This document shows positions 4,169 through 31,783 of a stretch of DNA of 64,000 nt, piece after piece. The notes below the pieces were generated by a model. That model was not told where the DNA came from and ran no database searches. It saw only the letters and a program-made list of their open reading frames with translations. Source of the stretch: Nitrospirales bacterium (lineage in GTDB: Bacteria; Nitrospirota; Nitrospiria; Nitrospirales; UBA8639); the NCBI GenBank assembly GCA_963422365.1, contig OY729426.1, positions 640,001-704,000 of the forward strand. Direction: 5' to 3'. Made by a program: the position numbers and the translations under genes. How positions within the stretch are numbered: position 1 is the first letter of the stretch; each line of letters opens with the position of its first letter.

Positions 4169-7100
4169 ATGGCGAAGCCGACAAAGCACGCCAAGCGGGA
4201 CATCGAGACTTACGCACACACCGGCAAAAAGCGCGTGAACAACCCGCCGGTCGGTCTGGTGACGCCGGATACGGACCTGGACGCGGGAAAGAAGACCTAC
4301 GCCCACGACCCCCATCTTGACCCGCAACTGCAATGGGCCGGCAAGTCGGACCAGACGTCCTTTGACGTGCCGACGGTCTCGCTTCACGTCCACGAACGGA
4401 TCGACCCGCGCACGATCGTCGAAGCCGTGCGAAAGCGTAACGGCCCGTCTGCCGGCCAGGCAGGCGCGGAACCGCAGCTCTCGTTGTTTGCCGCACCCGA
4501 AGAAAACCCACCGATCCGCCAGGCCATCGAGTTCTACAAACACCGACACAACTGGACCAACCGCCTGATCGCCGGTGACAGCCTGCTCGTCATGAACAGC
4601 CTGCTTGAGAAGGAAGGCATGGGTGGGAAAGTGCAGATGGTCTATCTTGACCCGCCTTACGGCATCCGCTATGGCTCAAACTTCCAGCCATTCGTCAACC
4701 GGCGCGAGGTCATCGACGGCAGGGACGAGGACCTGACCGGCGAGCCAGAGCAGATCCGCGCCTTCCGCGACACCTGGGAACTCGGCATCCACTCCTACCT
4801 CGCTTACCTGCGTGACCGCCTGCTGCTGGCGCGGGAACTACTGACCGAAACCGGCAGTGTTTTCGTGCAGATCGGCGACGAGAACGTGCATCGGGTGGGC
4901 ATGGTGATGGACGAGATCTTCGGCGCAGGGAACCGCATGGCAACGATTTCCTACGCCACGACCGGCGGTAGTTCAGCCAACACATTGCCACAGGTCGCCG
5001 ACTATCTGCTCTGGTACGCCAAGGATCGTCAGCAGGTGAAGTATCGACAGCTTTATGAACCGCTGACGCGGGCGGAAATCGTCGAACAGATGAATTGGGA
5101 CGCCATGGTCGAACTTGAAGATGGCGTGTGCCGCGCTCTGACGCGCGAGGAAAGAGTCGATCCGGACAGGTATCTCCCTAAAGGCGCGCGCTTGTATCAG
5201 CGGGCCATGCTCACCTCTCAAGGTGAATCCCAGACGGGAAGGTCGGAACTCTACGAAGTCGGAGGGAGGACATATATCTGTCAGAGGAATCAGCAATGGC
5301 GGGTCGGCAAGGCAGGTCTTGACCGGCTATACGAGATCGGGCGCTTGGATCTCAGCGGGCAGCACAAGAGACTGGCTTGGAAGCATTACGAAGACGAGAT
5401 CCCAGGAAAGCGTTTGAACAACGTATGGGCCGATCTGGCTCGTCCTATGGACAAACGCTATGTCGTCCAGACCGCCCCGAAGACCATCCAGCGCGCCATC
5501 CTGATGACCACCGACCCGGGCGATCTGGTCTTCGACCCGACTTGCGGCTCCGGCACCACGGTGCACGTCGCCGAGCAGTGGGGCCGGCGCTGGATTGCCT
5601 GCGACACCTCGCGCGTGGCCGTCGCCATCACCCGGCAACGGCTGATGACAGCCCACTTCGACTATTACGAACTTGCCCATCCCGATGAAGGCGTCGGTGC
5701 CGGGTTCCGCTGCCGCAGCGTGGCCACTGTCTCGGCGCGCACCCTCGGCTACGACGAGCCGCCCAACAAGACGATCCTCTACGACCAGCCGCACCTCGAC
5801 CGCAAGAAGACCCGCGTCACCGGACCGTTCACCGTCGAGGCCGTGCCCGCACCCGCAGTGAAAGCCCTGGACGAGATTGTTGACCCTCACCCCGACCCTC
5901 TCACGGAGGGAGAGAGAGAAAAAAGGGAACGCTCTCAAGGGCGGGGGATGAATGCGGACGCCGACCTGTCCATTGCCCGCTCCGGCGAAACCCTGCGGCA
6001 GAGCGACTGGCGCGACGAACTGCTGAAAACCGGCATCCGCGGCAAGGCCGGCCAGCGCATCTCCTTCGCCAGGCTAGAGCCAATGCCGGCCACGCGGTGG
6101 CTGCACGCCGAGGGCGAAACCCGACCGGACGATTCAGGGGCGAACGAGGTCCGCGAGCCCGCCACCGCCTACAACCCCGAGCGCGTGGCGGTCTCCTTCG
6201 GGCCGGAGCACGCGCCCCTGGAGCAACGCCAGGTCGCCCGCGCCATCGAAGAGGCGCAGAGCCTTGTCCCGAAGCCGAAGATCATCGTCTTCGCCGCCTT
6301 CCAGTTCGATCCGGAGACGGCCAAGGACATCGACGAGACCCACTGGCCGGGCGTCACGCTGCTCAAGGCGCAGATGAACGCCGACCTGTTGACCGGCGAC
6401 CTCAAGAAGAAACGCGCCAGCAACGAGAGCTTCTGGCTGATCGGCCAGCCGGACGTGGCGGTTTCGAGTTTCGAGTTTGTCGTTTACGGTAAAGGCAAGG
6501 ACAGGATTGCTGAATATGGAACGTTCAAGAAGCTATCGGGACTTGATTGTCTGGAAGAAATCAATCGACTTGATTGGCAAGGTCTATGCCTCTACGCGCT
6601 CCTTTCCCAGGGAAGAGATCTATGGCATTATCTCGCAGATACGCAGGGTTGGGATTTCGATAGCGGCCAATATCGCGGAAGGCCAAGCCAGAAACACGAG
6701 CGGGGAGTTCCGGCAGTTTCTTGGAATAGCCCGGGGATCGTTGGCGGAATTGGAGACGTTGCCGACGATCTCGTAGAATTCGGGATATTCGACCTCGCCG
6801 GATGCCGAAGGGTTATTGAGCGACTGCGAGGAGATCCCCAGGTTGTTGGCAGGCTTGCAGAAATCGCTCAAGCCCTGAACTTCCCCATCACTCCCCACAC
6901 TAACAACTACCGGCTCGAGACTCAAAATCTGCACAGCGTCGCCGTGCACGGCTTCGACTACTACAACACCAAGACCGGCAACGTGGAATCCGGCGGTGCG
7001 GACAGGATCGCCCTGTGGATGCTCGACCCGGACTACGACGGCCGCAGCCTGTTCCCCCGCCAGGTCTTCTTCCCCATGGCCGGTGCGCAGGACGGCTGGG

Positions 7101-7264
7101 CAAGGCTCGCCCGCAACCTCAAGGCGGAGATTGATATGGACCTGATCGAGACGTATCGCGGCGCCGTCTCACTGCCCTTCGAGGCGGGCGAACATAAACG
7201 CGTCGCCGTCAAGATAGTCGACGACCGGGGCATCGAGAGCTTGAAGATCGTGGAGGTGGGATGA
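4169..7264 (+). CDS. Type III-like RM site-specific DNA adenine methyltransferase (Mod) with in-frame insertions
   Basis: YLDPPYGI catalytic motif before DPTCGSGTT SAM-binding motif (beta class); C-terminal AVKIVDDRGIESL; upstream of a Res helicase-nuclease. Confidence 0.9.
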   Translation: MAKPTKHAKRDIETYAHTGKKRVNNPPVGLVTPDTDLDAGKKTYAHDPHLDPQLQWAGKSDQTSFDVPTVSLHVHERIDPRTIVEAVRKRNGPSAGQAGAEPQLSLFAAPEENPPIRQAIEFYKHRHNWTNRLIAGDSLLVMNSLLEKEGMGGKVQMVYLDPPYGIRYGSNFQPFVNRREVIDGRDEDLTGEPEQIRAFRDTWELGIHSYLAYLRDRLLLARELLTETGSVFVQIGDENVHRVGMVMDEIFGAGNRMATISYATTGGSSANTLPQVADYLLWYAKDRQQVKYRQLYEPLTRAEIVEQMNWDAMVELEDGVCRALTREERVDPDRYLPKGARLYQRAMLTSQGESQTGRSELYEVGGRTYICQRNQQWRVGKAGLDRLYEIGRLDLSGQHKRLAWKHYEDEIPGKRLNNVWADLARPMDKRYVVQTAPKTIQRAILMTTDPGDLVFDPTCGSGTTVHVAEQWGRRWIACDTSRVAVAITRQRLMTAHFDYYELAHPDEGVGAGFRCRSVATVSARTLGYDEPPNKTILYDQPHLDRKKTRVTGPFTVEAVPAPAVKALDEIVDPHPDPLTEGEREKRERSQGRGMNADADLSIARSGETLRQSDWRDELLKTGIRGKAGQRISFARLEPMPATRWLHAEGETRPDDSGANEVREPATAYNPERVAVSFGPEHAPLEQRQVARAIEEAQSLVPKPKIIVFAAFQFDPETAKDIDETHWPGVTLLKAQMNADLLTGDLKKKRASNESFWLIGQPDVAVSSFEFVVYGKGKDRIAEYGTFKKLSGLDCLEEINRLDWQGLCLYALLSQGRDLWHYLADTQGWDFDSGQYRGRPSQKHERGVPAVSWNSPGIVGGIGDVADDLVEFGIFDLAGCRRVIERLRGDPQVVGRLAEIAQALNFPITPHTNNYRLETQNLHSVAVHGFDYYNTKTGNVESGGADRIALWMLDPDYDGRSLFPRQVFFPMAGAQDGWARLARNLKAEIDMDLIETYRGAVSLPFEAGEHKRVAVKIVDDRGIESLKIVEVG
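4443..4465. repeat. Short palindromic repeat (GCCYGTCTG-N5-CAGGCAGGC) in frame in mod
   Basis: Imperfect 9-bp inverted repeat resembling intergenic copies at 15583-15612 and 17080-17102; encodes PSAGQAG. Confidence 0.5.
5884..5918. repeat. CCCTCACCCC...CTCTC-N-GGGAGAG palindromic element in frame in mod
   Basis: CCCTCACCCCGACCCTCTCACGGAGGGAGAGAGAG encodes PHPDPLTEGERE; similar copy inside larC. Confidence 0.65.
6460..6929 (+). mobile_element. Four-helix-bundle gene cassette bounded by inverted heptamer repeats, inside mod
   Basis: Left flank GTTTCGAGTTTCGAGTTTGTCGTTT, right flank CAACTACCGGCTCGAGACTCAAAATC (18/26 Watson-Crick plus 4 G-U); sits between Mod segments LIGQPDV and VHGFDYYN. Confidence 0.7.
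6516..6878 (+). pseudogene. Four helix bundle protein (TIGR02436 / 23S rRNA IVS / Avd-like) nested in the +1 frame of mod; internal TAG 6774-6776
   Basis: SYRDLIVWKKS...FPREEIYGIISQIRRVGISIAANIAEG...EFRQFLGIARGSLAELET; after the TAG the frame continues NSGYST...EEIPRLLAGLQKSLKP to TGA (120 codons total). Confidence 0.88.
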
Positions 7265-8076
7265 TGAAGATGATGAACAAAGCAAAAGCTATCGAACGCC
7301 TGGGGAAGGTACTGAATGAAGTACCGGAATTGAAGAAAATATCCAATTCACCCCAATTCGATAAATGGCTCAGAAATGCACAGCTAGCCATTACGAATAC
7401 GTTTGGAAACGAGTCACGCCACATTACGGATTTCAACGAGGCGATAGAATCACTGAATCCAGCACTGGGTCTATTTACGCACGACTCTGAATTCCAAGCG
7501 TATATTAGAGGATTGGAGCGTGCTGCGGCCATTCTCGAATCAATGATCGAAGAGATCGGGGAATACTGGGAGGAAGGCGAAAAATCATCCGGCGTTTCCA
7601 ATCCAGAAGTCGAGATTCCCGAAAATACGAATAAGGTCTTCATTATTCATGGCCGTGACGAAGCGGCACGAGAAACAGTTGCGAGATTCCTGGAAAACCT
7701 CAAACTCGAACCAGTTATCCTCCACGAACAACCGAACAAGGGCCGCACGATCATCGAGAAGTTCGAGGCTTATGCAGGGGTCGGCTTCGCTGTAGTTCTG
7801 TTAACACCGGACGACAAGGGCAATCTTCGCGATGATCAATCCAAGGGCAATCTTCGTGCACGGCAGAATGTCGTTTTCGAGTTCGGATATTTCATCGGAA
7901 AACTCGGCCGGGGAAAGGTCTGCGCCTTGGTGAAGGGCGACATCGAAAAACCTTCGGATTACGACGGTGTTCTTTATATTCCCATGGACGATAAGGGCGC
8001 GTGGAAAATGGAACTCTTTCGGGAACTGAAAGACGCTGGATTCGATATCGACACGAATCGGACGTTCGAGCTATGA
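7261..8076 (+). CDS. TIR-like nucleotide-binding domain protein (Cap12/Pycsar-effector-type TIR)
   Basis: KVFIIHGRDE, LHEQPNKGRTIIEKFE, FAVVLLTPDD, RARQNVVFEFGYF, PSDYDG. Confidence 0.88.
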   Translation: MMKMMNKAKAIERLGKVLNEVPELKKISNSPQFDKWLRNAQLAITNTFGNESRHITDFNEAIESLNPALGLFTHDSEFQAYIRGLERAAAILESMIEEIGEYWEEGEKSSGVSNPEVEIPENTNKVFIIHGRDEAARETVARFLENLKLEPVILHEQPNKGRTIIEKFEAYAGVGFAVVLLTPDDKGNLRDDQSKGNLRARQNVVFEFGYFIGKLGRGKVCALVKGDIEKPSDYDGVLYIPMDDKGAWKMELFRELKDAGFDIDTNRTFEL

Positions 8077-8384
8077 CCGTGCGTATCCAGATACCCTCCG
8101 ACCTGATCGCCGCCTTTTGACAACGTTGGCGGATTACGCGCCTTGAACTCTTCGGGTCCGTGTTGCGCAAGGATTTCGGTCCGAACAGCGATGTGGACGT
8201 GTTGGTCAGTTTCGAAGAAGATGTCAAGCACACGCTGTTCGATTTGGATGACATGGAACTGGAATTGAAGGAGATATTCGGTCGCGAAGTTGATCTGGTC
8301 AGTAGGCGGGTGGTTGAAGCGAGCCTCAACTATTTGCGCAGAAACAGCATTTTGAAATCTGCCCAGGTGATCCATGGATCATGA
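8073..8384 (+). pseudogene. MNT minimal nucleotidyltransferase antitoxin with in-frame TGA at 8118-8120
   Basis: ATG 8073 [44 protein letters not shown]...GREVDLV. Confidence 0.85.
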
Positions 8385-8747
8385 CGCGCCACATATTCTG
8401 GACATCATCAGGTCCGCACGATTGATCGGGGCCTATCTCGAGGGTGTCTCGCGGGAAAATTTCATGCGGAACGTGCAGTTGCAGGATTCCGTCATTCGAC
8501 GTATCGAAATTATCGGTGAGGCGGCGGGGCGGCTTTTTCGGCGCCATTTCGGCAGAGACATACGGCAATTCCGTGGGGTCGGATGATTGGAATGCGTAAC
8601 CGCATGATTCACGTGTACGATGGAATCGATATGGCTCTCGTGTGGACTACAGCTCGTAAGCCAATCCCTGAATTGCTGACGCTAGTTGAGCCTCTGGCGT
8701 CACCGGAACCCAGCCCATCGCCGGGAAGCGAGCAGGGGAACGGCTGA
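8374..8747 (+). pseudogene. HEPN (DUF86/HepT-like) RNase toxin, frameshifted at the T run near 8534-8538
   Basis: QDSVIRRIEIIGEA in one frame, then IPWGRMIGMRNRMIHVYDGID (RxxxxH) in the next frame to TGA 8745-8747. Confidence 0.85.
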
Positions 8748-8750
8748 CTG

Positions 8751-11561
8751 ATGGCGCAAACGACCATCGACAGGCTGATCATCAACTCGCCCTACGAAGA
8801 ACCGGCGCGGCACTGGAGTTATGACATCGAGAAGCGTGCTTTCTCTCTCGCGGAGGGTCGCCGGCAGGCCGGATACATCGTCGCGTCGGAAGGCTCCAGG
8901 ACCTTCGACGACCCCGGTAGATTCGTCGAAATCCCTTTGGTCAATCTGATTCGGCCGCGGGTGCGAGCATGGCGCGAAACGGGATATCCGGGCGTGACGG
9001 GAATCACCAAGCGACTGCTGGAGCAGTGGCGGGACCCGGAGGAGTTCGATAGCCGCCGGTTGTTCTTCTGTCAATTGGAGGCCGTCGAGACGCTGATCTG
9101 GCTTGCGGAAGCGCCAGCGGCCGATAAGGTCGGCGTGGAGATTCCTTCCGACGGCGGAACATTTGAACGCCTGTGCGCCAAGATGGCGACCGGCTCCGGC
9201 AAGACCGTCGTCATGGCCATGGTCATGGCCTGGCATATCCTGAACAAGGTCGCCTATCCACAAGATACCCGGTTTGCCAAGAACGCTCTGGTCATCGCCC
9301 CCGGCCTGACGGTCAGGAACCGTCTCGCTGTTCTGGCACCATCCCATCCTGAAAACTACTACGACGCCTTCCGCATCGTGCCGTCGTCCCTGCTCGACAA
9401 GCTCCGCCAAGGCAAGGTCGTGGTCCGCAACTGGCACGCGCTCAACTGGGAAACCGAGGAGAAGATCAAGGGGAAACGCAGCGTGGACAGGCGCGGCGCC
9501 AAGAGTGACGCGGCCTATGTCCTCGATGTCCTAGGCGAGATGGCCAGCGCCCGCAACCTCCTCGTCATCAACGACGAGGCGCACCACGCATGGCGCGTTC
9601 CCCCTGAGTCGAAGGTTCGGGGCGTTGCGAGGGGCGCGATCGAGGAGGCCACCAAGTGGGTGGGCGGCCTCGATCGGATCAACAAGGCACGCGGCATTCT
9701 CGCCTGTTACGACTTCTCCGCCACGCCGTTCGCTCCTTCGGGTAAACGGAGCTCGGAGGAGTCCCTGTTCGGCTGGATCGTGAGCGACTTCGGGCTGAAC
9801 GACGCCATCGAGTCCGGCTTGGTCAAGACCCCGCGCGTGGTCATTCGCGACGACGCGGTGCCGGACGCCAAAACCTATAAATCACGCCTCTACCACATCT
9901 ACAACGATGCGGAAGTCAAGAACGACCTGAACCGCCCGGCCGAAGCCACCGACCCCCTGCCGGACCTCGTGATCAACGGCTACCACCTGCTCGGCTACGA
10001 CTGGCGCGAGACGGCGAAGGACTGGAGCGAGAAGGGATTCCGAATCCCGCCGGTCATGATCACCGTTGCGAACCGCACGGAGACCGCGGCTCGGATCAAG
10101 TATGCGTTCGATCACAACAAGGTCCACATCAAGGAGCTTTGTGACTCGGAGCGCACCCTGCACATCGACTCCAAGGTACTGGGTCAAGCCGAAGCCGCCG
10201 AGGAACCGATCGCAGAAATCGGCGTCGGCGAAAGTGCGAAAGACGAGGACGACGGCCAAGATCACAACGTGACCAGGAAACAGCAAGCGGAGCGACTGCG
10301 CTTGCAGGTGGACACCGTGGGCCAGCCCGGAAAGAAGGGCGAGCAGATCCAGAAGGTGATTTCCGTCGGGATGCTGTCCGAGGGTTGGGACGCAAAGACC
10401 GTGACCCACATCATGGGCTTGCGAGCCTTCACCAGCCAGTTACTCTGCGAGCAGGTCGTCGGACGCGGCCTGCGCCGAACCTCCTACGAGGTCAACCCTG
10501 ACACCGGCTTGTTCGAAACGGAGTACGTCAACATTTTCGGCGTGCCTTTCACGTTCCTGCCGCATGAGTCTGCGGAAGGCGTCATCCCTGAACCGCCGAA
10601 GCCGAAGACGGCTATCGAGCCGGTAACGGACAAAGCGGCGTTTGAAATTTCGTGGCCGAACGTGATCCGCATAGACCACGTCTACCACCCGCACCTTTCC
10701 CTGGATTGGCAAACAGTGAAGCCCCTGGAGCTTGACGCCAGCCAGACGGCCAAGATCGCGGAGATTTCCCCCATCGTCGATGGCAGAACGGACGTGACGA
10801 AGATCGAGGCCATACACTTGGAGAATCTGGCGCGGGAGTTCCGCACGCAGCGGATCATCTTCGAGACCACGCGGGACGTGTACGATCAAATGCAGGAGAA
10901 CTGGCGTGGCGGCAGAGCATTCCTGCTGGCCCAACTGGTGCGGCTGGTCGAGCAGTTCATCCTGTCGGATCGCATCAACGTCAGTCCCGCACTGTTCGTT
11001 CGCGACGATCTCAAGCGCCGCCTCATCATCACGCTCAACATGACCAAGGTGGTCCAACACATCTGGGAAGCGATTCGCTTCGACAACACCGAGAAGCTGG
11101 AACCGGTGTTCGACCGGGACCATCCCATCCGCTCAACCGGCGACGTGGGGACGCGGTACACCGGCAAGCCCTCCGAGCACACCGTGAAAAGCCACATCAA
11201 TTTCTGTGTCTATGACAGCACGTGGGAGGCATCTGAAGCCTTCGAGCTTGATCGCAACCCCGCAGTGGCGGCCTGGGTCAAGAACGATCACCTCGGCTTT
11301 GAGGTGCTCTACCTCTATCGCGGCGTGGTGAGGAAGTACCGTCCCGACTTTCTCATCCGGCTCAGGTCGGGTGACATGTTGGTCTTGGAAACCAAGGGCC
11401 GCGACAGCGATCAGGATCGAACCAAACGCCGGTTCCTCGACGAATGGGTCAACGCCGTGAACGCGCGTGGCGGCTTCGGTCGCTGGACCTGGGACGTGTC
11501 CACGGCTCCTGGCGACATCCAGGATATCCTTGCGCGACATTCGTGCGAGACCGCCGCGTGA
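8751..11561 (+). CDS. Type III-like restriction helicase-endonuclease (Res, BPTD_3080-like)
   Basis: KMATGSGKT, INDEAHH, MLSEGWD, EQVVGRGLRR, and C-terminal YRPDF...LETKG (PD-(D/E)xK). Confidence 0.9.
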   Translation: MAQTTIDRLIINSPYEEPARHWSYDIEKRAFSLAEGRRQAGYIVASEGSRTFDDPGRFVEIPLVNLIRPRVRAWRETGYPGVTGITKRLLEQWRDPEEFDSRRLFFCQLEAVETLIWLAEAPAADKVGVEIPSDGGTFERLCAKMATGSGKTVVMAMVMAWHILNKVAYPQDTRFAKNALVIAPGLTVRNRLAVLAPSHPENYYDAFRIVPSSLLDKLRQGKVVVRNWHALNWETEEKIKGKRSVDRRGAKSDAAYVLDVLGEMASARNLLVINDEAHHAWRVPPESKVRGVARGAIEEATKWVGGLDRINKARGILACYDFSATPFAPSGKRSSEESLFGWIVSDFGLNDAIESGLVKTPRVVIRDDAVPDAKTYKSRLYHIYNDAEVKNDLNRPAEATDPLPDLVINGYHLLGYDWRETAKDWSEKGFRIPPVMITVANRTETAARIKYAFDHNKVHIKELCDSERTLHIDSKVLGQAEAAEEPIAEIGVGESAKDEDDGQDHNVTRKQQAERLRLQVDTVGQPGKKGEQIQKVISVGMLSEGWDAKTVTHIMGLRAFTSQLLCEQVVGRGLRRTSYEVNPDTGLFETEYVNIFGVPFTFLPHESAEGVIPEPPKPKTAIEPVTDKAAFEISWPNVIRIDHVYHPHLSLDWQTVKPLELDASQTAKIAEISPIVDGRTDVTKIEAIHLENLAREFRTQRIIFETTRDVYDQMQENWRGGRAFLLAQLVRLVEQFILSDRINVSPALFVRDDLKRRLIITLNMTKVVQHIWEAIRFDNTEKLEPVFDRDHPIRSTGDVGTRYTGKPSEHTVKSHINFCVYDSTWEASEAFELDRNPAVAAWVKNDHLGFEVLYLYRGVVRKYRPDFLIRLRSGDMLVLETKGRDSDQDRTKRRFLDEWVNAVNARGGFGRWTWDVSTAPGDIQDILARHSCETAA

Positions 11562-11624
11562 ACATCCAAGCGACTGGCGGAGCATTTGTCGCGGGCTGTG
11601 GCGCTGTTCGCCCTTCCCCGGTGA

Positions 11625-12908
11625 TTACAGCCGCCGAAACACATTGCGAGCAGCATTGATGGTCTGTTCAAGATCTGCCGCCGTGTGCGCGGTGGAGACG
11701 AAGGCGGCTTCGAATTGGGAGGGGGCGAAGTAGGACCCGCGCTTCAACATGTTGTGGAAGAATTTGGCATATCGAACCGTATCGGCTTGTTTCGCCGACT
11801 CATAGTCCACCACAGGGCCTGCCGTAAAGAATCCGCCCAAGAGGGAGCCGATTCGCGTTTGATAAAAAGGGATGTCGGCCAGCCGGGCGGCTTGTGCCAA
11901 GCCTTGGGCCAACTGGTTTCCTCGCCGTTCCAGTTTTTCATACACTCTGGAGCCCCTGAGTTTTTTCAAGGTTTCGATTCCAGCGGTCACGGCCAACGGA
12001 TTCCCGGACAGCGTGCCGGCTTGATAGACCGGGCCGGCCGGCGCTACAAGATCCATGATCTCGTTCGACCCGCCGTAGGCTCCGACCGGCAGCCCCCCAC
12101 CGATGATTTTCCCCAGGCACGTGAGATCGGGGTTGATGCCATACAGGGTTTGTGCGCCTCCATAGGCCACGCGAAATCCTGAAATCACTTCATCGAAGAT
12201 CAGCAGGATCCCATGTTTTCTGGTAAGGGTGTACAGTTGCTGAAGAAAGCCTGGTTGAGGCAACACGACGCCCATGTTGCCTGCGATGGGCTCGACGATG
12301 ATACAGGCCAGTTTCCGCCAATGTTTCCGTACCAGGCTCTTCACCGACTCGATATCATTATAGGGAGCGGTGAGCGTCTGACTCGCCGCGGCTTCGGGTA
12401 CGCCCGGGCTATCGGGAAGGCCTAGCGTCGCGGCACCGGACCCGGCTTTGACCAGCAGATGATCGGCATGGCCATGGTAGCACCCTTCGAATTTGAGGAT
12501 GGCCTCCCGTTTGGTAAAGCCCCGCGCCACCCGAACGGCACTCATCACGGCTTCCGTGCCGGAGCTCACAAGCCGAACCTTTTCAACGGATGGCAACGCC
12601 TCGCAAATCATTTGAGCCAACGTCAGTTCCTGTTGGGTCGGCGCGCCGTAACTGGTCCCTGCACCGGCAGCCCGCTGAATAGCCCGGACCACCGACGGAT
12701 GGGCATGTCCCACTATCATGGGCCCCCACGAGGCCACATAATCCAGATAGGTGTTGCCATCCACGTCGGTCACCGTGGCACCCTGTGCACGTTTGATAAA
12801 CAACGGATGCCCGCCGACCGATTGAAACGCACGGACCGGGCTGTTCACCCCTCCGGGAATATACCCCTGTGCGCGGGCAAATAATGTTTTCGACGTCGCG
12901 CTTTTCAC
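11625..12908 (-). CDS. hemL: Glutamate-1-semialdehyde 2,1-aminomutase
   Basis: PGGVNSPVRAF, SGTEA, FEGCYHGH, FDEVISGFR, GKIIGGGLPVG, YQAGTLSGNP. Confidence 0.97.
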   Translation of the reverse strand: MKSATSKTLFARAQGYIPGGVNSPVRAFQSVGGHPLFIKRAQGATVTDVDGNTYLDYVASWGPMIVGHAHPSVVRAIQRAAGAGTSYGAPTQQELTLAQMICEALPSVEKVRLVSSGTEAVMSAVRVARGFTKREAILKFEGCYHGHADHLLVKAGSGAATLGLPDSPGVPEAAASQTLTAPYNDIESVKSLVRKHWRKLACIIVEPIAGNMGVVLPQPGFLQQLYTLTRKHGILLIFDEVISGFRVAYGGAQTLYGINPDLTCLGKIIGGGLPVGAYGGSNEIMDLVAPAGPVYQAGTLSGNPLAVTAGIETLKKLRGSRVYEKLERRGNQLAQGLAQAARLADIPFYQTRIGSLLGGFFTAGPVVDYESAKQADTVRYAKFFHNMLKRGSYFAPSQFEAAFVSTAHTAADLEQTINAARNVFRRL

Positions 12909-12944
12909 TTCGCGTCACCTCCCATGGAATCGCTTCATACCACC

Positions 12945-13253
12945 CTAATCAGGATCGCTGAAGCGCTGTCCTTCCTCACCCGACCAGCGCACGATGCCGA
13001 TCTCTTCTGATTCCCACAAGGCTTGTTGTTCTCGTACAGCCAAGTCGGCCTCTTTCTGTTTGTCTTCCAAGCTAAGTTTTGCCTCCTGTTCACCATCAGA
13101 GGCCCATCCTGGCGGTTTCTGACCTTTGGGGATATCTTTCCGAAGCATATTGACTGGCATCTGATCCTTCCTTTCCATCAACCATGTTTTTGGCCACCCT
13201 GTTTTGGGCTCCCACGCCTCTGGCCAAGCCATAGGCCTAGCCTCGGAGACCAC
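12945..13253 (-). CDS. Hypothetical protein (start may be ATG 13178)
   Basis: Fills the gap between the TrmH-family gene and hemL on the same strand. Confidence 0.45.
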   Translation of the reverse strand: MVSEARPMAWPEAWEPKTGWPKTWLMERKDQMPVNMLRKDIPKGQKPPGWASDGEQEAKLSLEDKQKEADLAVREQQALWESEEIGIVRWSGEEGQRFSDPD

Positions 13254-14022: not shown

Positions 14023-14321
14023 GACTGGAAGGTCACGTGTGGCTGCCGATGCCCGGGCAACAGTTCGTCCCGGCCTACCCCGTGAAGGTGCCATTATGGG
14101 CAAACAACGTGCCGGAACCCGCTGAGCGACCAGCCCGAATATGAATATCCGGATGAAACGTCATAGACGCGCGTTGATTGATGGCGCGGCAGCAACAGAC
14201 AAAAACGTAACAGAGTTTTTCTTGAAGCGGCATGTCGTGCGACCGAGAACGTTCTTATTGGAGCGGTGTCACAAGAGAAGACGTGACTCTTCTTGTTGCT
14301 CAGCCACTCTCTCCTTCGTCA

Positions 14322-15582: not shown

Positions 15583-15612
15583 TGCCTGTCTGCCCTATCT
15601 GTCAGACAGGCA
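15583..15612. repeat. Palindromic repeat TGCCTGTCTG-N10-CAGACAGGCA
   Basis: Perfect 10-bp inverted repeat, intergenic. Confidence 0.6.
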
Positions 15613-21296: not shown

Positions 21297-21310
21297 ATCA
21301 GGACGCGGCG

Positions 21311-22723: not shown

Positions 22724-22745
22724 GAGCAACGGAGAACCCGGCGGT

Positions 22746-23729: not shown

Positions 23730-24294
23730 CGAGCTTCTCTTCGACCATTTCACATAACACGTGGCCGAGCGTGATGTGACATTCTTGGATTCGAGCGGTG
23801 ACTTTCGACGGCACAATGAAAGGATGATCGACGAGGCTTGCGAGCGTCCCCCCATCGTTTCCCATCCACCCCACGGTGATCAGACCTTTGTGCCGGGCAG
23901 TCTCAACGCCCTTCAACACGTTGGGCGAGTTCCCGCTGGTGCTAATGGCAATTACGATATCGCCCGGGCGACCCAGCGCGTCTACCTGCCGTACAAAAAT
24001 GTCCGCATAGCCATAATCATTAGCAATACACGTCACAGCGGCCATATCCGCTGCCAGGGCCACGGCAGGCAACGGCACACGGTCTCGATCATATCGCCCG
24101 ACAAACTCCGCGGCAATGTGCGACGCATCCGTGGCACTTCCGCCATTGCCGAAGAGTAGAATCTTCCCTCCCGCCTCAATGGCCTTGATGATGAGGTCCG
24201 CCACCTGCGCGATCCTGTCGGCATGGGTTCGAACAAATCGGAGTTTGACCTCTCCACTTTCTTGAAATCGTTGTGTAATTTGGTCCGGCATCAT
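23713..24294 (-). CDS. gmhA: D-sedoheptulose 7-phosphate isomerase
   Basis: FGNGGSATDASHIAAE, ANDYGY, STSGNSPNV, TARIQECH. Confidence 0.95.
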   Translation of the reverse strand: MMPDQITQRFQESGEVKLRFVRTHADRIAQVADLIIKAIEAGGKILLFGNGGSATDASHIAAEFVGRYDRDRVPLPAVALAADMAAVTCIANDYGYADIFVRQVDALGRPGDIVIAISTSGNSPNVLKGVETARHKGLITVGWMGNDGGTLASLVDHPFIVPSKVTARIQECHITLGHVLCEMVEEKLVAYTS

Positions 24295-24400
24295 GGGAGC
24301 GATTCTAGGCCCCCTCTCCAGAAATCTCAACAGGGGCCGTTAAAAATGGACATTCCCAACGCTTGGCGTTTACCAGGGTCGATGCTATAGTTTCGCCGTT

Positions 24401-25660
24401 ATGAACGAGGATTATCGGACCAAAGCGTTACTCATCGCGGTTTCCGGAGATCCTATCCCGGTACAGGCCTGCATCAATCGGCTCGTCCCGGAGTTTCTCT
24501 GTTTTGTGGTATCCGACTCCCGGAAAGCCTCTATCGAAGCAGACATTCAACCGGCAATCACCACAATGCCGCAACGATGGGATTGGATTCTCACGGAAGA
24601 GTCTGAAAGTTTTACCGCGGTCCATCACACGTTCACCCAAAGCCTTCCCGACATGTTGAAGACCTGGGGCCTGCAACCCGGAGAACTCGTCGTGGACTTC
24701 AGCAGAGCCACTCCGGCCATCGCCGCAGCGATGGCGCTCGCCAGCCGACCATGGACGTCGCAAGTTGTTTGCTTGACCACACCGGAGAGCGAGCCGGCCC
24801 AGAAGGACATCGTGAAGTTCGAAGGACGGACCTTCGCGTGGCAAGAGGGAAATCCCTGGAATGAAGAAGCCGTGACGGCCCGACAGGAAGCAGCCCTGTT
24901 ATTTAATCAAGGGGCATTTTCCTCGGCAGCCAAACGGTTTCGACGCATTGAATCGTTGGTCGGGGGAAGCCTCAAACCGCTGTATCACGCCCTGGCGAAT
25001 TTGGCCGATGGCTATGCCGCCTGGGAAGGCTTCAAATACCGAGAGGCCTGGGACAAACTCAAAACCGCTCTCAAGGCCTTGGAATTAGCCTCGGTCTGGG
25101 GAGGACCGCCCGGCATGTCTTTATTCCTGGCCGGCGTCAAACAGAACCTGAAGTTTTTGGAAAGCATTGTCATGGACCCCGATGACGTCAAGATCCCCGT
25201 GGCGTATGATTTACTCGCCCATGCGAAACGACGCGGGGAACGAGATCAGCACATCGACTTGGCCCTCCAACTGTTACTTCGAGCGCTAGAAGCCTATTCC
25301 CAGCACCAATTGTGGAACCAGCATGGAATCAAAAGCTGGGACGTGCAGGTTGAACAATTACCGCAAGATTTACAGGAACTCTGTCGGACCTGCTATGCCA
25401 ACGACATGGATGGGAAATTTCATCTTCCGCTACAGGCCCAATTTCGCGCCTTGGCCGGGCTGGGTCATCCCATGGGACAAACCTTCGTGAACGAGTGGGC
25501 AAAACTCAAAACCCTCTGGGATGCAACCGACCACAGCGTTCTGGGCCATGGGGTTCAAACCACGAAACCCGAACGGTTTCATCAGTTCTATGCCGTGGCC
25601 ATCAAACTGACCAACGTCACCGAACCCAACTTGCCGGCCTTCCCGAAGATGACGTTGTAA
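24401..25660 (+). CDS. TIGR02710-like CARF/HEPN protein without adjacent cas genes
   Basis: N-terminal CARF-like strand pattern (LLIAVSGDP...LVVDFS), NPWNE, helical middle, C-terminal HSVLGHG. Confidence 0.6.
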   Translation: MNEDYRTKALLIAVSGDPIPVQACINRLVPEFLCFVVSDSRKASIEADIQPAITTMPQRWDWILTEESESFTAVHHTFTQSLPDMLKTWGLQPGELVVDFSRATPAIAAAMALASRPWTSQVVCLTTPESEPAQKDIVKFEGRTFAWQEGNPWNEEAVTARQEAALLFNQGAFSSAAKRFRRIESLVGGSLKPLYHALANLADGYAAWEGFKYREAWDKLKTALKALELASVWGGPPGMSLFLAGVKQNLKFLESIVMDPDDVKIPVAYDLLAHAKRRGERDQHIDLALQLLLRALEAYSQHQLWNQHGIKSWDVQVEQLPQDLQELCRTCYANDMDGKFHLPLQAQFRALAGLGHPMGQTFVNEWAKLKTLWDATDHSVLGHGVQTTKPERFHQFYAVAIKLTNVTEPNLPAFPKMTL

Positions 25661-25665
25661 CTTCC

Positions 25666-25730
25666 GTGAACGTCACAATCTATTATGAAGAGACCGACCG
25701 GCATGGTGTCTTACGCCAACCATCTCAAAT
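25666..25730 (+). pseudogene. Remnant of a YbgC-like acyl-CoA thioesterase N-terminus
   Basis: VNVTIYYEETD then, after a frameshift, GMVSYANHLK; resembles the YbgC motif RVYYEDTDxxGVVYHANYLK. Confidence 0.45.
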
Positions 25731-25858
25731 CGTCGAAGGATCAGCCACCCTCTCAGTTGCTGACGATGGTGTCGCTGCCGCATCTCATGCGGCAGAAAGG
25801 CAATGAAAATACTTCAGGCAACCTACCTCTGAACAGCGGAGGAACAGAGACGAGTGCG

Positions 25859-26212
25859 TTAAGGCTTTTCCCGAAACAGCCAGGCCAAATACATGCCGGC
25901 GATGGCCAGCGTCACCAACTCCACGGTTTGGAGGATGCGACTCACCACCGCCTCGGGCTCCGGAGGCGACAGAATAAAATGCATGCCCAGGTAAGCAGGG
26001 GGGACGCCAGGCGGCGACTCCCACGGCGGAAACAGGACTGCAAGAATCAACGCGCCCGTCATGACGTACAAGATTCGAAGATTCAGGATTTCCTTGGATC
26101 GCGATTCAGCTTGCGGCTCCTGAACGAACCGCTTTCCGCAACTGTGGCAAAAGCGAGCCTCCGAAGACAATTCATGCCCGCATGCCTGACACGTCTTTTG
26201 ACCATTCATCAC
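25859..26212 (-). CDS. Zinc-ribbon membrane protein
   Basis: CQACG...FCHSCG double CxxC plus two hydrophobic helices. Confidence 0.75.
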   Translation of the reverse strand: MMNGQKTCQACGHELSSEARFCHSCGKRFVQEPQAESRSKEILNLRILYVMTGALILAVLFPPWESPPGVPPAYLGMHFILSPPEPEAVVSRILQTVELVTLAIAGMYLAWLFREKP

Positions 26213-26497
26213 GTCAGATTATAATCAAGCTGAGAGAAATTACCAGTGGGGAACTCTGAGTCACCAAAATCTGAGACACAGACGGAGTTGTCTGGCACTG
26301 TGGTGGCATAAGGCACGTGTGACTCCCATCATGAGTTGGAGGCGCGTCTGAATTCAGGAACGCCTTGAAGGAAAACCAACGCAGGATGTGGTCGGCGCCT
26401 ACCAGGAAACGGTTTCAAAAGAAATGCGGGCAAGGTAAGATTGCGATACGCTTCGCGGGAAGCGATCCGGCAAATATCCAAATATGGAATTGGACTG

Positions 26498-27343
26498 ATG
26501 AACCAAGTAGCCGAACCCAGAGCAAGCTACGGTGGACCGTGGACCAGAGAAAAGCTAGAAATACTGAAAAAGTATCTGGATGCCTACACGACCGCACTAA
26601 AAAAGACGCCGTTCAAGCTGATGTACATCGATGCCTTCGCCGGCACGGGTCATTTGGATCTCGATTATATGGATACCAAGGATTTCATGCGTGGCTCAGC
26701 AATAAGGGCTGTCAGCATTGACAACAGGCCGTTCGATAAACTGATTTTTGTTGAAAAAAAACAAGAGCGATGTGATGAATTGGCAAACCTAAGAAAAGAG
26801 CACCCCGGCAGAAATATTCAGATTGAGAATTCGGATGCAAACGAGTTTCTGAGAAGTCTTCAACAAAATTGGAATCAATGGCGCGGCGTCCTTTTTCTCG
26901 ACCCGTTCGCCACGGAAGTCGAATGGTCTACCATCAAAACGATAGCGGGTTTCAATGCGTTGGACACTTGGGTTCTTTTCCCTGTATCTGCAATCGTACG
27001 GATCTTGCCAACATCACGACAACCTGACGATATTTCACCCAAATGGGCCAAGTGTCTTACTCGGATTTTCGGAGATGAGAGTTGGCGCAACCTCTACCAA
27101 GAAAACCCCCAGGGAAACTTGTATGGCGATGTCGAATATCAGAGAAAGCCAGGCGTCGATGGACTCATCGGCATCTACAAGAAAAACCTGAAAAACCTTT
27201 TTGGCACAAGGTGGCTTGAGCAATCTCGATCTCTAAAGAACTCCAATAATTCCCCATTGTTCGAGTTTATGTTCTGCGTGGGAAGCCCGAAGGGAATCGA
27301 TCCCGCCACCAGAATCGCAAACCACATCCTGAAGCACCTGTAG
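26498..27343 (+). CDS. tcmP: Three-Cys-motif partner protein (TcmP family, methyltransferase-like fold)
   Basis: [36 protein letters not shown]; directly upstream of DUF5131. Confidence 0.85.
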
Positions 27344-27345
27344 CC

Positions 27346-28065
27346 ATGTCCACGCCGTCGCGCATCGAATGGACCGAGACCACATGGAACCCGGTCACGG
27401 GCTGCACGAAAATCAGCGACGGCTGCAAGCATTGCTACGCCGAGCGAATGGCAACACGGCTCCACGCCATGGGCGTCACGAAATACCGGAACGGGTTCGA
27501 CCTCACCGTTCACGAGCCGGCACTAGACGCACCGCTCCGGTGGAAAAAACCTCGGCTCGTGTTCGTGAACTCGATGAGCGACCTGTTCCACGACTCCGTC
27601 CCTACCGGCTTCATCCAGTCGGTGTTCCGCGTCATGAATCAGGCATCGCCGCACACGTTTCAGGTGCTGACGAAACGCCCTGCTCGCGTCATGGACCTCG
27701 ATCACGAACTGAACTGGACGCCGAATATCTGGCTCGGCGTGAGCATCGAATCCGAAGCGTGGCTCAACCGCGTGGCGAAACTGATACACGCCGGCGCCCA
27801 CGTGAAATTCCTGTCTCTCGAACCGTTGCTGGGGCCGTTGCCCGGCCTGGATTTGGCAGGAATCGATTGGGTGATCGTCGGCGGAGAATCAGGGCCCGGT
27901 GCCCGGCCCATGAAGGCGGAGTGGGTGCGGGACATCCGCGACCAGTGCCTGCGACGCGGCGTCCCGTTTTTCTTTAAGCAGTGGGGCGGCGTGCGCAAGC
28001 ACCGGACCGGTCGCGTGCTCGATCACACCACGTGGGACCAAATGCCACGTTTCACAACAATCTGA
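27346..28065 (+). CDS. DUF5131 / phage Gp37-Gp68 family three-Cys (radical-SAM-like) protein
   Basis: [64 protein letters not shown]. Confidence 0.92.
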
Positions 28066-28205
28066 CGCCATGCCAAGACTCCTCCCAGCCCACCGCATCC
28101 GGGCCGCTCGATCAGACCGGACTGTCTCGACGCCCTCGGACTGACGGTGACGGATGTTTGTTCTCAACTCGCCCTTGCACGTGTCCAAGCCAAGAAGCCC
28201 CCATC

Positions 28206-30970
28206 ATGGCCCCTGTGAATCAAACCCCGGAACAAAAAGCCCGCGACAACATTGATAGGATGTTGGTTGATGCGGGTTGGGTCGTCCAAGACAAAAAGGG
28301 CATCGACTTCAATGCCGGGCCAGGAGTGGCCGTCAGAGAATATCAGACAGATAGTGGGCCGGCGGATTATGTGCTGTTTGTGGATCGTCAACCGGCAGGA
28401 ATTGTTGAGGCCAAGAAAGAAGAAGAAGGGCACTGCCTGACCACAGCGGAAACACAGTCCGATGACTACGCCAAAGCGAAATTGAAATGGATTGCCGATA
28501 GCAAGCCACTTCCCTTCATCTATGAAAGTACGGACGTCCTGACGCGGTTTCGAGACGAACGTGCCCCGAAACCACGATCCCGGCCGGTCTTTACTTTTCA
28601 CCGGCCCGAAACGTTCAAGGCATGGATATCACAGCCTGAAACTCTGTGTTCCCGCTTACTGGATCTTCCCGTTCTCAATACCGAAGGATCGCGGGACTGC
28701 CAGATCAGGGCCATCAACAATCTGGAGCAATCATTTCAAGAGAATCACCCGCGCGCCCTGATCCAGATGGCCACCGGATCAGGGAAGACCTTTACGGCCA
28801 TCACGTTCATCCACCGATTGCTCAAATTCGCCGATGCGAAACGAGTGTTGTGTCTGGTGGATACTAAAAACCTAGGCGAGCAGGCCGAACAGGAGTTCGT
28901 GGCCTACGTGCCCAATGATGACAATCGCACATTCACCGAACTGTATACCGTGCAGCGCCTGAAATCCGGTTATATCGCTTCAGATATCCAGGTTTGTATC
29001 AGCACCATTCAGCGGCTTTACTCTATTTTGAAAGGGGAACCGTTAGACGAAGCCGCTAAACTGGAAAACCCCGCCGAACGGCTTCAACCTCAAAGCCCCG
29101 TGCCCGTGAGTTATAACGGGAAAACTCCCATTGAGTTCTTTGCTTTCGTCGTCATTGATGAATGTCATCGGTCGATCTATAACCTCTGGAGGCAGGTATT
29201 GGAGTATTACGACGCGTTTCTTATTGGCTTAACCGCAACCCCGGACAAGCGCACGTTTGGGTTCTTCAATGAAAACGTCGTCAGCGAATACGGCCATAAA
29301 GAGGCCGTGGCCGACGGCGTGAACGTGGGATACGACGTGTACAACATCGAAACAGAAATGACCCAAAAAGGCGCGAAGATTACAGCTAAGGAATATGTAG
29401 ACAAGCGGGACTGGCTGACCCGAAAAAAAACGTTGGACACAGCTAGATGAAGAGGTCGAGTCTGCTCCCAGGGATTTAGACAGAGACATCGTCAATCCCA
29501 GCCAGATCCGAAATATCATTCGGACGTTCCGCGACAAACTTCCTGAAATGTTTCCAGGACGGAAGGAGATCCCTAAAACCTTGATTTTCGCCAAGACCAA
29601 TAGCCACGCCGACGATATGATCCAGATCGTTCGGGAGGAATTCGGGGAAGGCAATGAATTCTGCAAAAAGGTGACGTATCAGATCGAAGAAGACCCAACA
29701 TCCGTTTTGGCGCAATTTCGGAACGATTTCCATCCCCGTATTGCGGTGACCGTAGACATGATTGCGACGGGAACCGAAGTCAAACCACTGGAATGTCTGC
29801 TCTTCATGCGTGACGTGAAAAGCCGCAACTACTTCGACCAAATGAAGGGACGGGGCACTCGTACACTGGAGTACGACGACCTGAAAAAAGTGACGCCCTC
29901 AACGCACAGCGCCAAGACGCACTTTGTGATTGTGGATGCCGTCGGCGTGACGAAATCCCTGAAAACGGATAGCCGACCACTGGAGAAAAAACCGACCGTT
30001 CCGCTGAAAGACCTTCTTTCTGTCGTCATGATGTGGACACGGGATAAAGAGACCATTTCTTCCCTCGCGAACCGCCTGGCCCGGCTTTCCAAACAACTGA
30101 GTGACGACGAACACAAACGGATTACGGAAAAGACCGAGGGCAAGACCATCAATCAAGTTGTTCATGACTTGCTCGATGCCATGGATCCGGATACACAGAA
30201 GAAAAAGGCCCGTGAGGTGAATACCCTTGCTCCCAACCAGGCTCCTTCAGAAGGACAGATCGAAACGGCAAAAGGAGAACTGGTGAAAGAGGCAACAGGC
30301 GTGTTTACCGGTGCGTTGAATACGTTGCTTGAGAATATCCGCCGAAGCCACGAACAGATTATTGATACGGTGAACATAGACACGGTGGAATTTGCCGGAT
30401 GGGATACACGGGCCACGGAGAAAGCCCAGGTACTCATACAGGATTTCACGTCTTACCTCGAGACTCACAAGGATGAGATCACGGCGCTACGCATCTTCTA
30501 TAACCAGCCCTATCGCCGACGAGAATTGACGTATCAAATGATCAAGGACATTCTGGAACAGCTGAAGCGGGAGACCGAACCTCGCACCGCTACGGATCTG
30601 GCAGGCTTATAAACAACTGGACGACTATAAAGGCCAAGAGCCGGTGAGTGAGCTAACGGCACTCGTGGCGCTGATCCGACGCGCCTGCGGCATTGACGAA
30701 ACCCTTTCACCATATTCGGAAACCATTCTCCGGAACTTTCAGCACTGGATCATGAAACGCCACAGTGGCGGAGGCACGAAATTCAATGAAGAACAAATGC
30801 ACTGGTTACGCATGATCCGCGACCATATCAGCAGTTCGTTCCACCTGGATCGTGAGGATCTTGACTATGCCCCATTCGACGCCCAGGGTGGCTTAGGTCG
30901 CATGGCGCAGTTATTCGGTGATGAGATGGATCGGGTAATTGACGAAATGAATGAGGCGTTGGCGGCGTGA
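28206..30970 (+). pseudogene. hsdR: Type I restriction subunit R (EcoKI/EcoEI-like), two frameshifts
   Basis: TPEQKAR, ADYVL, MATGSGKT, IDECHRS, GLTATP, QMKGRGTR; frameshifts at the A8 run 29423-29430 and near 30573. Confidence 0.88.
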
Positions 30971-31783
30971 AGGCAGGAAGGAGTAAGGAAAAAGGGAGAA
31001 GGAAAAAGGATGAAGTCATGGATCTTCGGACTCGGACGAAGGAGTTTGCACTGCAGATCATTCGCCTTTACTCAGGTCTTCCCAAGCGGACCGAGGCTCA
31101 AGTCATAGGCAGGCAAATTATTCGTTCTGGAACGTCTGTGGGAGCCAATTACAGGGAGGCGTATCGCGCGCGGAGCAAAGCGGAGTTCATCGCAAAGGCT
31201 GGCGATTGTTTGAAGGAGATTGAAGAAACCGGATATTGGCTTGAACTGCTTGTCGACTCAGGAATCGTTTCCGAGGAGCAACTTGAAAGCCTGAGAAATG
31301 AATGCGGTGAATTGACTGCGATATTCGTCACTTCAATTCGGAATGCGAAGAGCAACAATGAACGTGGCGCGTGAAGTGATACCAATCGGAGAAGCGCTCG
31401 CCCCGAGAAATGAGAGGATCGCACCTGCCGACTATCCTGAGTTGCCTTATATTGGTCTTGACAACATTGAAGCTCATTCCATGCGTTTACTCGGTTCAAA
31501 ACCTGCTGCAAGCATGAAAAGTTCCGCCAAACGTTTCTATCCCGGTGATGTGCTTTACTCACGGCTGAACCCCTATCTGAACAAAGTCTGGCCGTCGGAC
31601 CGCAACGGCATTTGCTCATCCGAGTTCATCGTGATGCCCGGCAATCATCTCGTGGATCCCAGCTTTCTCGCATTCAGGCTCAACGCCATGGATTTCGTTT
31701 CATTCGCAACCAGCTTGAATGCAGGCGACAGACCGCGTGTAGACGTTGCTCAGATTTCTACCTTTTGCCTTCCTCCTTTTTCC
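30967..31783 (+). mobile_element. Four-helix-bundle cassette bounded by inverted heptamer arrays, enclosing an HsdS TRD
   Basis: Left array of NNNAAGG units at 30967-31016; right array ATTTCTA CCTTTTG CCTTCCT CCTTTTT CC at 31754-31783 (24/30 complementary to 30987-31016). Confidence 0.6.
31018..31374 (+). CDS. Four helix bundle protein (TIGR02436 family), intact
   Basis: DLRTRTKEFALQIIRLY...VIGRQIIRSGTSVGANYREA...SKAEFIAK...LKEIEETGYWLELL...ECGELTAIF. Confidence 0.92.
   Translation: MDLRTRTKEFALQIIRLYSGLPKRTEAQVIGRQIIRSGTSVGANYREAYRARSKAEFIAKAGDCLKEIEETGYWLELLVDSGIVSEEQLESLRNECGELTAIFVTSIRNAKSNNERGA

Follow-up and report, generated by a model that had tools for sequence, protein, structure and literature searches.

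Probable cassettes of the IVS protein family, with inverted heptamer arms, in two restriction-modification loci of a Nitrospirales bacterium

Described systems and the two cassettes of the window

The closest described counterpart of the elements treated here is the intervening sequence (IVS) in helix 45 of the 23S rRNA of Coxiella burnetii. According to the excerpted description it is a 428-nt selfish element with an open reading frame (ORF) for an S23p protein, it is closed by a 28-bp terminal stem inside which RNase III cuts, tandem GACAGAT heptamers in a strain-variable copy number stand directly before the ORF, and the ORF is in reductive decay (PMC4990558). We report on two elements of a similar design in a 64,000-nt stretch of a Nitrospirales bacterium (contig OY729426.1, positions 640,001 to 704,000 of the forward strand; hereafter the window). 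Each holds a gene for a four-helix bundle (4HB) protein of the PF05635/TIGR02436 family with an array of degenerate heptamers and an inverted partner, and both are found inside restriction-modification (RM) loci, i.e. in a protein-coding context. The explanation that we prefer, with a rough probability of 0.6, is that both are cassettes of the IVS protein family, low-harm selfish passengers that hitch-hike with two acquired RM loci.

The likeness to the Coxiella IVS, as far as the excerpt describes it, consists of a PF05635 protein, a size of about 0.4-0.5 kb, a terminal inverted-repeat stem and heptamers before the ORF. The stem and the heptamers around the ORF were found for both copies, the stem of copy 2, with arms 735 nt apart, also holding the recognition domain of hsdS. 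The location differs: the IVS lies in an rRNA helix and is excised harmlessly by RNase III because the rRNA fragments stay together, whereas neither window copy is in 23S rRNA, both lie in protein-coding operons, and copy 1 is inside an ORF whose host frame must be read through.

Other described systems share parts of the design. An excerpt of a survey of cas loci reports 18 genes of the 4HB family there, with no word on arms (PMC3936711), and PF05635 is given as the commonest family near reverse transcriptases (RTs) of diversity-generating retroelements (DGRs) in a text whose excerpt is likewise silent on arms (PMC10053308). Avd, the accessory protein of DGRs (4DWL, 8UB7), is a small four-helix bundle that in the model comparison resembles the 4HB protein (TM score 0.72-0.78) and binds nucleic acid in a ribonucleoprotein; unlike the cassettes it has no heptamer arms, the identity is 12%, and no RT and no template/variable repeats were found by the cassettes. 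The Rickettsia palindromic elements, which Ogata et al. reportedly described in 2000 as palindromic selfish DNA inserted in frame in protein genes and translated with the host, are alike in being palindromic and in frame within a protein-coding gene. They are, however, about 100-150 bp long and gene-free, whereas the cassette encodes a second gene in another frame, with both frames under selection. Dispersed heptamer repeats of cyanobacteria are known as STRR (short tandemly repeated repetitive) sequences. These and the heptamers of Beggiatoaceae likewise repeat a 7-nt unit in tandem within intergenic leaders, where many arrays stop shortly before a start codon, but they are described as direct arrays without an enclosed 4HB gene. 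For the TAACTGA repeats of Beggiatoaceae one inverted set is listed, and the excerpted text makes no mention of an IVS protein (PMC4679880). A full-text literature search, mostly outside subscription journals, gave no arm-gene-arm design outside rRNA and no nesting in methylase genes. The IVS-like cassette outside rRNA is what is new here, and the dual-coded nesting in defence methylase genes is the most surprising feature.

The genome is a single contig of 2.5 Mb and is 98.6% complete. A search of all of it with the TIGR02436 profile gave exactly two 4HB matches, both within the window. An earlier reading made from the DNA letters and their ORF translations (the sequence-only reading) had proposed two four-helix genes, each with its own heptamer repeat and an inverted partner, and each in an RM locus; the profile search, Tandem Repeats Finder and the pairing confirm this, copy 1 being within a methyltransferase (MTase) gene and copy 2 between hsdR and hsdS. 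The features of the first cassette are as follows.

4169..7264, + strand: host gene 1, an N6_N4 / type III-like DNA MTase of 1031 aa, intact, its frame open across the cassette (PF01555, E 6e-29; PADLOC MTase_III, E 3.7e-149; stop-free translation)
6458..6949, + strand: nested cassette 1, 492 nt, replacing the usual 57-nt hairpin loop between the motifs FWLIGQPDV and GFDYYN (homologue alignment)
6458..6491, + strand: 5' arm of cassette 1 with GTTTCGA x2.6, read in the host frame as AVSSFEFVVYG (Tandem Repeats Finder, duplex, closing stem of the minimum-free-energy fold)
6516..6878, + strand: 4HB gene 1, a pseudogene lying in frame +1 with respect to the host and interrupted by an in-frame TAG at 6774-6776 (profile match, one TAG)
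6898..6933, + strand: 3' arm of cassette 1, complementary to the 5' arm (minimum-free-energy fold, duplex dG -28.5)

The TIGR02436 match of copy 1 covers 6549-6872 (E 5.8e-32, 111.1 bits) when one TAG is read through, and this TAG splits the match into profile positions 1-86 and 88-119. Tandem Repeats Finder places the GTTTCGA repeat (2.6 copies) at 6461-6478. The inverted partners are TTTCGAGTTTCGAG and CTCGAGACTCAAAA, the latter within 6898-6933, over 14 nt with 2 mismatches, and the two arms form the closing stem of the minimum-free-energy fold. An AlphaFold2 model of the 1031-aa MTase, built on a 27-row alignment, was too poor to locate the insert (mean predicted local distance difference test score, pLDDT, of 46; predicted template-modelling score, pTM, of 0.31), and in it the arm-encoded peptides 755-773 and 916-933 are drawn as long paired strands.

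The second cassette lies at the hsdR/hsdS junction of a type I RM locus.

30969..31017, + strand: purine-rich 5' array of cassette 2, with about 4.7 heptamers of the AAGGAAA type, beginning at the hsdR stop codon and taking in the 4HB ribosome-binding region (Tandem Repeats Finder, pairing)
31018..31374, + strand: 4HB gene 2, intact, 118 aa (TIGR02436, E 2.6e-29; PF05635, E 1.3e-22; 2RLD, E 3.5e-25; AlphaFold2 model)
31343..32015, + strand: half-size hsdS, overlapping at its start with the end of 4HB gene 2; a frameshift at about 31787-31791 separates the frame of the target-recognition domain (31343-31870) from that of the conserved helix (31746-32015)
31753..31783, + strand: inverted partner of the 5' array, in the hsdS codons for QISTFCLPPFS (31 nt, 81%; closing stem in the minimum-free-energy and centroid folds)

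Family membership of copy 2 is clear from its scores (TIGR02436, 101.6 bits with a cut-off of 24; PF05635, 80.4 bits with a cut-off of 33.8), and in the whole-genome search the match runs from 31030 to 31347 with an E-value of 5.4e-29. Tandem Repeats Finder reports AAGGAAA x3.7 at 30985-31010. The array at 30987-31017 pairs with 31753-31783 at 25 of 31 positions; this is the sole same-strand site in the genome that matches the array at 23 or more of 31 positions, and it is an outlier among 5170 pyrimidine-rich windows, the next best of which reaches 22. The partner lies within the hsdS coding sequence, 380 nt past the 4HB stop codon, so that the stem encloses the 4HB gene and the hsdS recognition domain. 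Two HsdS proteins without a cassette have QLAPFPFPIAS and QLSPYPFPVAP as the residues homologous to QISTFCLPPFS. Among the relatives of copy 2, the three closest that are readable in both flanks (70-73% identity) have an ordinary 3' arm starting about 40-70 nt past the stop codon, and a fourth (68%) shows the same 4HB-hsdS fusion as the window, with hsdS cut short.

Of 26 genomes of the genus that were searched with copy 2, 3 gave a match. Relatives of copy 2 in the genus (L120, L125 and L127, genomes G299, G228 and G207) have, on both sides of the gene, fields of GATTGTG or GATTGCT heptamers in both orientations, far longer than ordinary arms. Another locus, L116 (G197:C44), has an arm-4HB-hsdS arrangement like that of copy 2; the ORF6N gene upstream has its end within the purine-rich arm, and a further inserted gene truncates hsdS.

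The copy 2 protein matches the solved structure of BT_0352 (2RLD) in sequence (E 3.5e-25). Its AlphaFold2 model (pLDDT 95.1) is a four-helix bundle that superposes on 2RLD with a TM score of 0.84, on Xcc0516 (2GSC) with 0.81-0.83 and on Avd of a DGR (4DWL) with 0.78, as well as on chains of a DGR ribonucleoprotein (8UB7). Judging from these models, the 4HB protein probably forms an Avd-like ring and binds nucleic acid, its own arms being a possible ligand. It has no match among the PADLOC models.

The nested lineage at the methyltransferase loop

The C-terminal half of the MTase was used in a protein search that gave 120 clusters among the matches listed, with a ranking that favours filled forms. 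Among these matches, the insert-bearing part of the query is covered to 91-100% by 91 clusters other than the query itself, and to only 40-48% by 28. The alignment places about 150 extra residues at a single site between FWLIGQPDV and GFDYYN, where other homologues have a loop of about 19 residues. Sites were counted on DNA from GTDB genomes and metagenomes, using only loci with both motifs. This gave 23 filled sites (21 unique) and 107 empty ones, the latter mostly with 57 nt between the motifs.

The length of every one of the 23 nested inserts is divisible by 3; eight length classes occur, the shortest 456 and the longest 492 nt. No stop interrupts the host frame in 22 of the 23 filled sites (20 of the 21 unique ones), and the third frame holds 7-18 stops. 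In the frame equivalent to that of the host, free-standing 4HB genes have 8.3 stops on average, and only 2 out of 29 have none; both of these are also nested, one in a BREX-1 PglX gene (L085; BREX, bacteriophage exclusion) and one in a type IIG gene (L109). The proposed placement of the four-helix genes such that the host gene is spared is thus real in the nested lineage, and is maintained there by selection, as indicated by the in-frame lengths and the stop-free frame.

The 4HB ORF is intact in 18 of the 21 unique nested cassettes, unlike the ORF of the Coxiella IVS, which is described in the excerpt as decaying. Column entropy in the nested lineage at positions 1, 2 and 3 of the 4HB codons is 0.60, 0.53 and 1.13, respectively. 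Variation is concentrated at the third position, and purifying selection therefore acts, by this sequence measure, on the 4HB protein and not on the peptide of the host frame, which selection only keeps open and in register. In each of the 21 unique cassettes the arms, taken as the first 48 and the last 54 nt, pair with a free energy of -20 to -61 kcal/mol. Two arm types occur, GTTTTGA-like and GTGGATA-like, each with its own complement opposite; pairing is therefore conserved while the sequence is not.

The loop of the MTase is also a hot spot for other in-frame insertions. One homologue (L067) has a loop of 117 nt with a perfect small hairpin, and in another (L035) the loop consists of 72 nt of 8-nt-periodic GGGACAAA-like units, possibly a solo arm. 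Some MTase homologues (P0003, P0004 and others) carry DUF559/MTES_1575 nuclease-like domains elsewhere in the protein.

Family-wide layout, spread and surroundings

Matches to TIGR02436 were found in 99 of 201 sampled genomes of the phylum, with 1-12 in each, and in none of 10 other sampled genomes of the same genus. At 29 loci the identity at a lag of 7 nt was 0.41 upstream and 0.39 downstream of the gene, as compared with 0.26 within it, with a second peak at a lag of 14. Flank-to-flank inverted matches, scored by ungapped matching, were better than those of 200 shuffles with p<=0.01 at 21 of 30 loci and with p<=0.04 at 5 more. The inverted heptamer arrays that had been predicted around family members are thus present family-wide, and arms and gene form one module. 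A strict scoring of the period was carried out on 75 cassettes, in which 43 upstream and 31 downstream flanks were too degenerate to be scored. A period of 7 was best in 25 of the 32 scored upstream and 36 of the 44 scored downstream arrays, and a period of 8 in 6 and 7, respectively; the period was the same on both sides in all 18 cassettes scored on both. A ranking of cognate against non-cognate arms by duplex energy placed the cognate arm first in 5 of 29 cases only. It was dropped in favour of ungapped matching because loci share arm types and G+C content drives the energy. A scan of the genome for arrays of at least 4 heptamer copies found none, with a criterion so strict that it also missed both arrays of the window.

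The sequence-only reading had also proposed to test whether protein clade covaries with the heptamer sequence. Arm similarity does follow protein similarity (Spearman 0.25, with none of 999 permutations as high), and common descent explains this: no protein pair below 40% identity shares arms, and a correlation of this kind is expected from descent as a unit, so it is not evidence of recognition.

The absence of empty-site alleles had been named beforehand as an outcome that would speak against the idea. The 107 empty against 23 filled loop sites settle this point, and since such alleles exist the cassette comes and goes. Two MTase proteins, one filled (P0002) and one empty (P0094), are identical at 729 of 736 positions (99%) upstream of the site and at 97 of 110 downstream, a sequence mosaic that indicates recombination at the site. 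A filled and an empty paralogue in one metagenome-assembled genome of Phycisphaerae (L038 and L035) are 93-98% identical over the 240 nt up to the site, after which everything between the conserved motifs is different (456 nt in the filled copy, 72 nt in the empty one). In a FastTree phylogeny of 113 MTase flanks (19 filled, 94 empty) the filled state takes 16 changes, at least 6 of which are forced by supported branches; this is hardly more clustered than with shuffled labels (mean 17.8, 55 of 500 shuffles as low), and the tree, with 278 columns, is poorly resolved. The nearest relatives of the MTase are from other phyla. In metagenomes that hold DNA of the window, contigs with related MTases skip 475-496 nt exactly at cassette 1. 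Among the 23 filled and 107 empty loci there was no near-identical filled/empty DNA pair, the best being 85-89%, and six plasmid records in PLSDB match the C-terminal part of the MTase only, none with a filled site. Five sequencing runs contain the complete stretch and may be where it came from, and none of the RNA runs contained more than 9% of its words.

Targeting of RM loci had been proposed as well. This is not supported as a rule, since only 4 of 30 sampled cassettes of the phylum are in a defence context (in a type IIG gene, in a BREX PglX gene, after an Eco57I-like MTase gene, and between cas1 and cas2). The other 26 lie at histidine-kinase/regulator junctions and in uvrC/inositol-monophosphatase, arsD/arsA, hisA/hisF, flgH/flgI and other operons. 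Cassettes recur at the same junctions across genomes, i.e. at uvrC/inositol monophosphatase (L091, L097, L103), at arsD/arsA (L106, L107, L111) and upstream of dinB (L124, L129, L131, L138, L141). The nested copies found are all in defence MTase genes, of three families (type III-like, BREX-1 PglX and type IIG). Among the seven closest relatives of copy 2 (at least 61% identity), three adjoin an RM gene (hsdR, hsdS and an N6_N4 MTase gene) and two more adjoin genes of the RhuM family; more distant relatives are by dinB or in two-component operons. In our reading, the RM association comes from lineages carried along with mobile RM systems and not from targeting.

The remaining genes of the two RM loci are listed below.

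7261..8076, + strand: TIR-domain gene, RM locus 1 (PF10137, E 6e-41; PADLOC PDC-S35)
8751..11561, + strand: restriction endonuclease gene of the BPTD_3080 family, full-length and intact, RM locus 1 (NF046055, 1126 bits with a cut-off of 800)
27981..30970, + strand: hsdR, in three ORFs (27981-29450, 29548-30612, 30644-30970) as a result of two frameshifts (Pfam/NCBIfam profiles, frameshift analysis)
32048..33519, + strand: hsdM, disrupted by a TAA stop in its frame (GVS*GDY) and by a frameshift near position 32842

The TIR gene (CAP12/Pycsar-type TIR, PDC-S35) is wedged between the MTase and BPTD_3080 endonuclease genes and has a 4-nt stop/start overlap with the MTase gene; the three genes may form a three-gene RM-TIR system. 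The type I locus (27981-33519) is disrupted at least five times: there are two frameshifts in hsdR, one in hsdS, and a TAA and a frameshift in hsdM. As the neighbouring housekeeping genes are intact, this looks like real pseudogenisation and not like assembly error. The claim that each host locus stays translatable consequently stands at the two junctions but fails for the type I host of copy 2. One passenger is dead in a live host gene (copy 1), and the other is alive in a dead host locus (copy 2).

Upstream of the type I locus is a defence island with a Csx1/CARF-HEPN gene (24401-25660), no CRISPR-Cas genes having been seen near it, and a gene pair PDC-M41A / PDC-M41B (DUF5131) at 26441-28065. 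A second defence-like cluster (56164-59022 and 60850-61794) comprises an IrrE/HTH gene, a SMODS/DncV-like nucleotidyltransferase gene (57329-58588) followed by a small ORF, and a truncated ResIII helicase gene.

The proposed explanation and its rivals

In the proposed explanation a cassette would be a 4HB gene (PF05635/TIGR02436) between inverted arrays of degenerate 7-nt, sometimes 8-nt, units that pair into a long stem, i.e. a design like that of the Coxiella IVS living in messenger-RNA genes. Harm would be kept low by the position of the cassette, either at a junction of genes or in a protein surface loop that tolerates it. The cassette would be transcribed with the host operon and its arms would pair in the RNA, where the stem, by analogy with the IVSs of rRNA, could be a substrate of RNase III, for which the genome has one gene. 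The stem might also occlude the ribosome-binding site of the 4HB gene (the arm of copy 2 includes the purine-rich leader and the ATG), and the protein may bind its own arms. Homologous recombination in the conserved flanks would add the nested lineage to MTase alleles or remove it from them, and a horizontally mobile RM system would carry it along. The methylase gene of a live restriction system could moreover be a safe harbour, because imprecise loss is lethal.

A number of results weigh against this explanation. The inverted repeat of copy 1 is weak when taken alone (p=0.07, 200 shuffles), and the folding energy of the whole cassette is no better than that of shuffles for either copy (z -0.73 and +0.90), so that only the closing stems are informative. 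The partner arm of copy 2 is in conserved hsdS codons and may be a secondary match and not the original arm. There is no target-site duplication or clean insertion junction, filled alleles differing from empty ones across the whole loop; recombination explains the spread of the cassette and not its origin. No RNA ends, cleavage or binding of the protein to the arms were observed, the assembled contigs giving no RNA ends, and the lone contig from an RNA library that crosses the site (88% identical, from a relative) is unbroken through the cassette, although carried-over DNA may be its source. The 4HB protein is under strong purifying selection, which fits a function useful to the host as well as a selfish one.

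That last point leads to the alternative in which the 4HB gene and the stem are a working defence accessory recruited by RM, BREX and CRISPR loci, either a post-transcriptional regulator of methylase or nuclease output or an RNA-binding sensor. We consider it unlikely, although several observations besides the selection on the protein agree with it: the nested copies found are all in defence MTase genes (type III-like, BREX-1 PglX in L085, type IIG in L109), five of the seven closest relatives of copy 2 adjoin RM (3) or RhuM-family (2) genes, and 18 genes of the family are reported from cas loci in the excerpted survey (PMC3936711). It does not fit the 26 of 30 sampled cassettes in non-defence operons, nor the existence of filled and empty MTase alleles that hardly differ over the stretch compared; the MTase of the window is intact while its 4HB gene is dead, and PADLOC has no model for the protein. 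A role of the arms as a phase-variation switch, in which one 7-nt unit gained or lost would shift the host frame (7 mod 3 = 1) and so toggle the methylase or specificity gene, seems very improbable to us. It would agree with the arms of copy 1 being within coding sequence, with the location of an arm of copy 2 in hsdS and of the hsdS frameshift 4-8 nt past that arm, and with the heptamer number that varies among Coxiella strains according to the excerpt (PMC4990558). However, the repeat does not contain that frameshift, the arrays have few units (2.6 in copy 1) and these are degenerate, and 23 of 23 nested inserts are in frame, the opposite of what a switching population would give; no arm length variants were present in the assembled contigs, in which rare variants are dropped.

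The sequence-only reading had inferred a mobility, regulatory or diversification module, and had proposed to look in the rest of the genome for an RT or nuclease acting in trans. A DGR or other retroelement module, with the 4HB protein as the Avd-like partner of an RT encoded elsewhere, would suit the Avd-like fold (4DWL, TM 0.78; chains of 8UB7) and the excerpted statement that PF05635 is the commonest family near DGR RTs (PMC10053308). Against it, RVT_1 had no match anywhere in the 98.6%-complete single-contig genome, the window included, which leaves neither the trans-acting RT nor the diversification module with support; repeat searches found no template/variable repeat pair, and most cassettes are in housekeeping operons. 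A DGR was rejected on the first two of these grounds, and of the rivals we regard a retroelement module as the least credible. The absence of an RT, transposase or recombinase from the window, as the sequence-only reading had it, was borne out among 62 ORFs scanned with Pfam; a trans-acting transposase was not searched for genome-wide. A transposon or miniature inverted-repeat transposable element was rejected on the same 62 ORFs and on the replacement of the loop without a duplication. An intein or a group I or II intron in the MTase was rejected because the host frame is kept stop-free by selection, which a spliced element does not need; Pfam finds only N6_N4_Mtase in the 1031-aa product, and Rfam was not run. 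Chance or an annotation artefact was also rejected.

A more far-reaching form of the passenger explanation can be put forward tentatively, and we think it rather doubtful, if less so than the rivals above. The elements would then be an undescribed class of cassette without a transposase or recombinase of its own, in which an Avd-like ring and 7-nt-periodic arms recognise each other, perhaps with one heptamer per subunit, harmlessly to the host message. One lineage would be truly dual-coding in defence MTase genes. It would be shielded there from deletion, because a cell with a live restriction system dies when the methylase is damaged, and the restriction system would take it from phylum to phylum.

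If the cassettes are what we propose, the ORF-bearing IVSs of rRNA would be one habitat of a wider cassette that also lives in ordinary operons and protein-coding genes. A large uncharacterised protein family, which includes Avd of the DGRs, would gain a lead to its function, with its own arms as the ligand. The nested lineage would be a clear example from nature of selection maintaining two overlapping frames across phyla, and gene callers would be fusing an out-of-frame stretch of 150 residues into many annotated defence methyltransferases.

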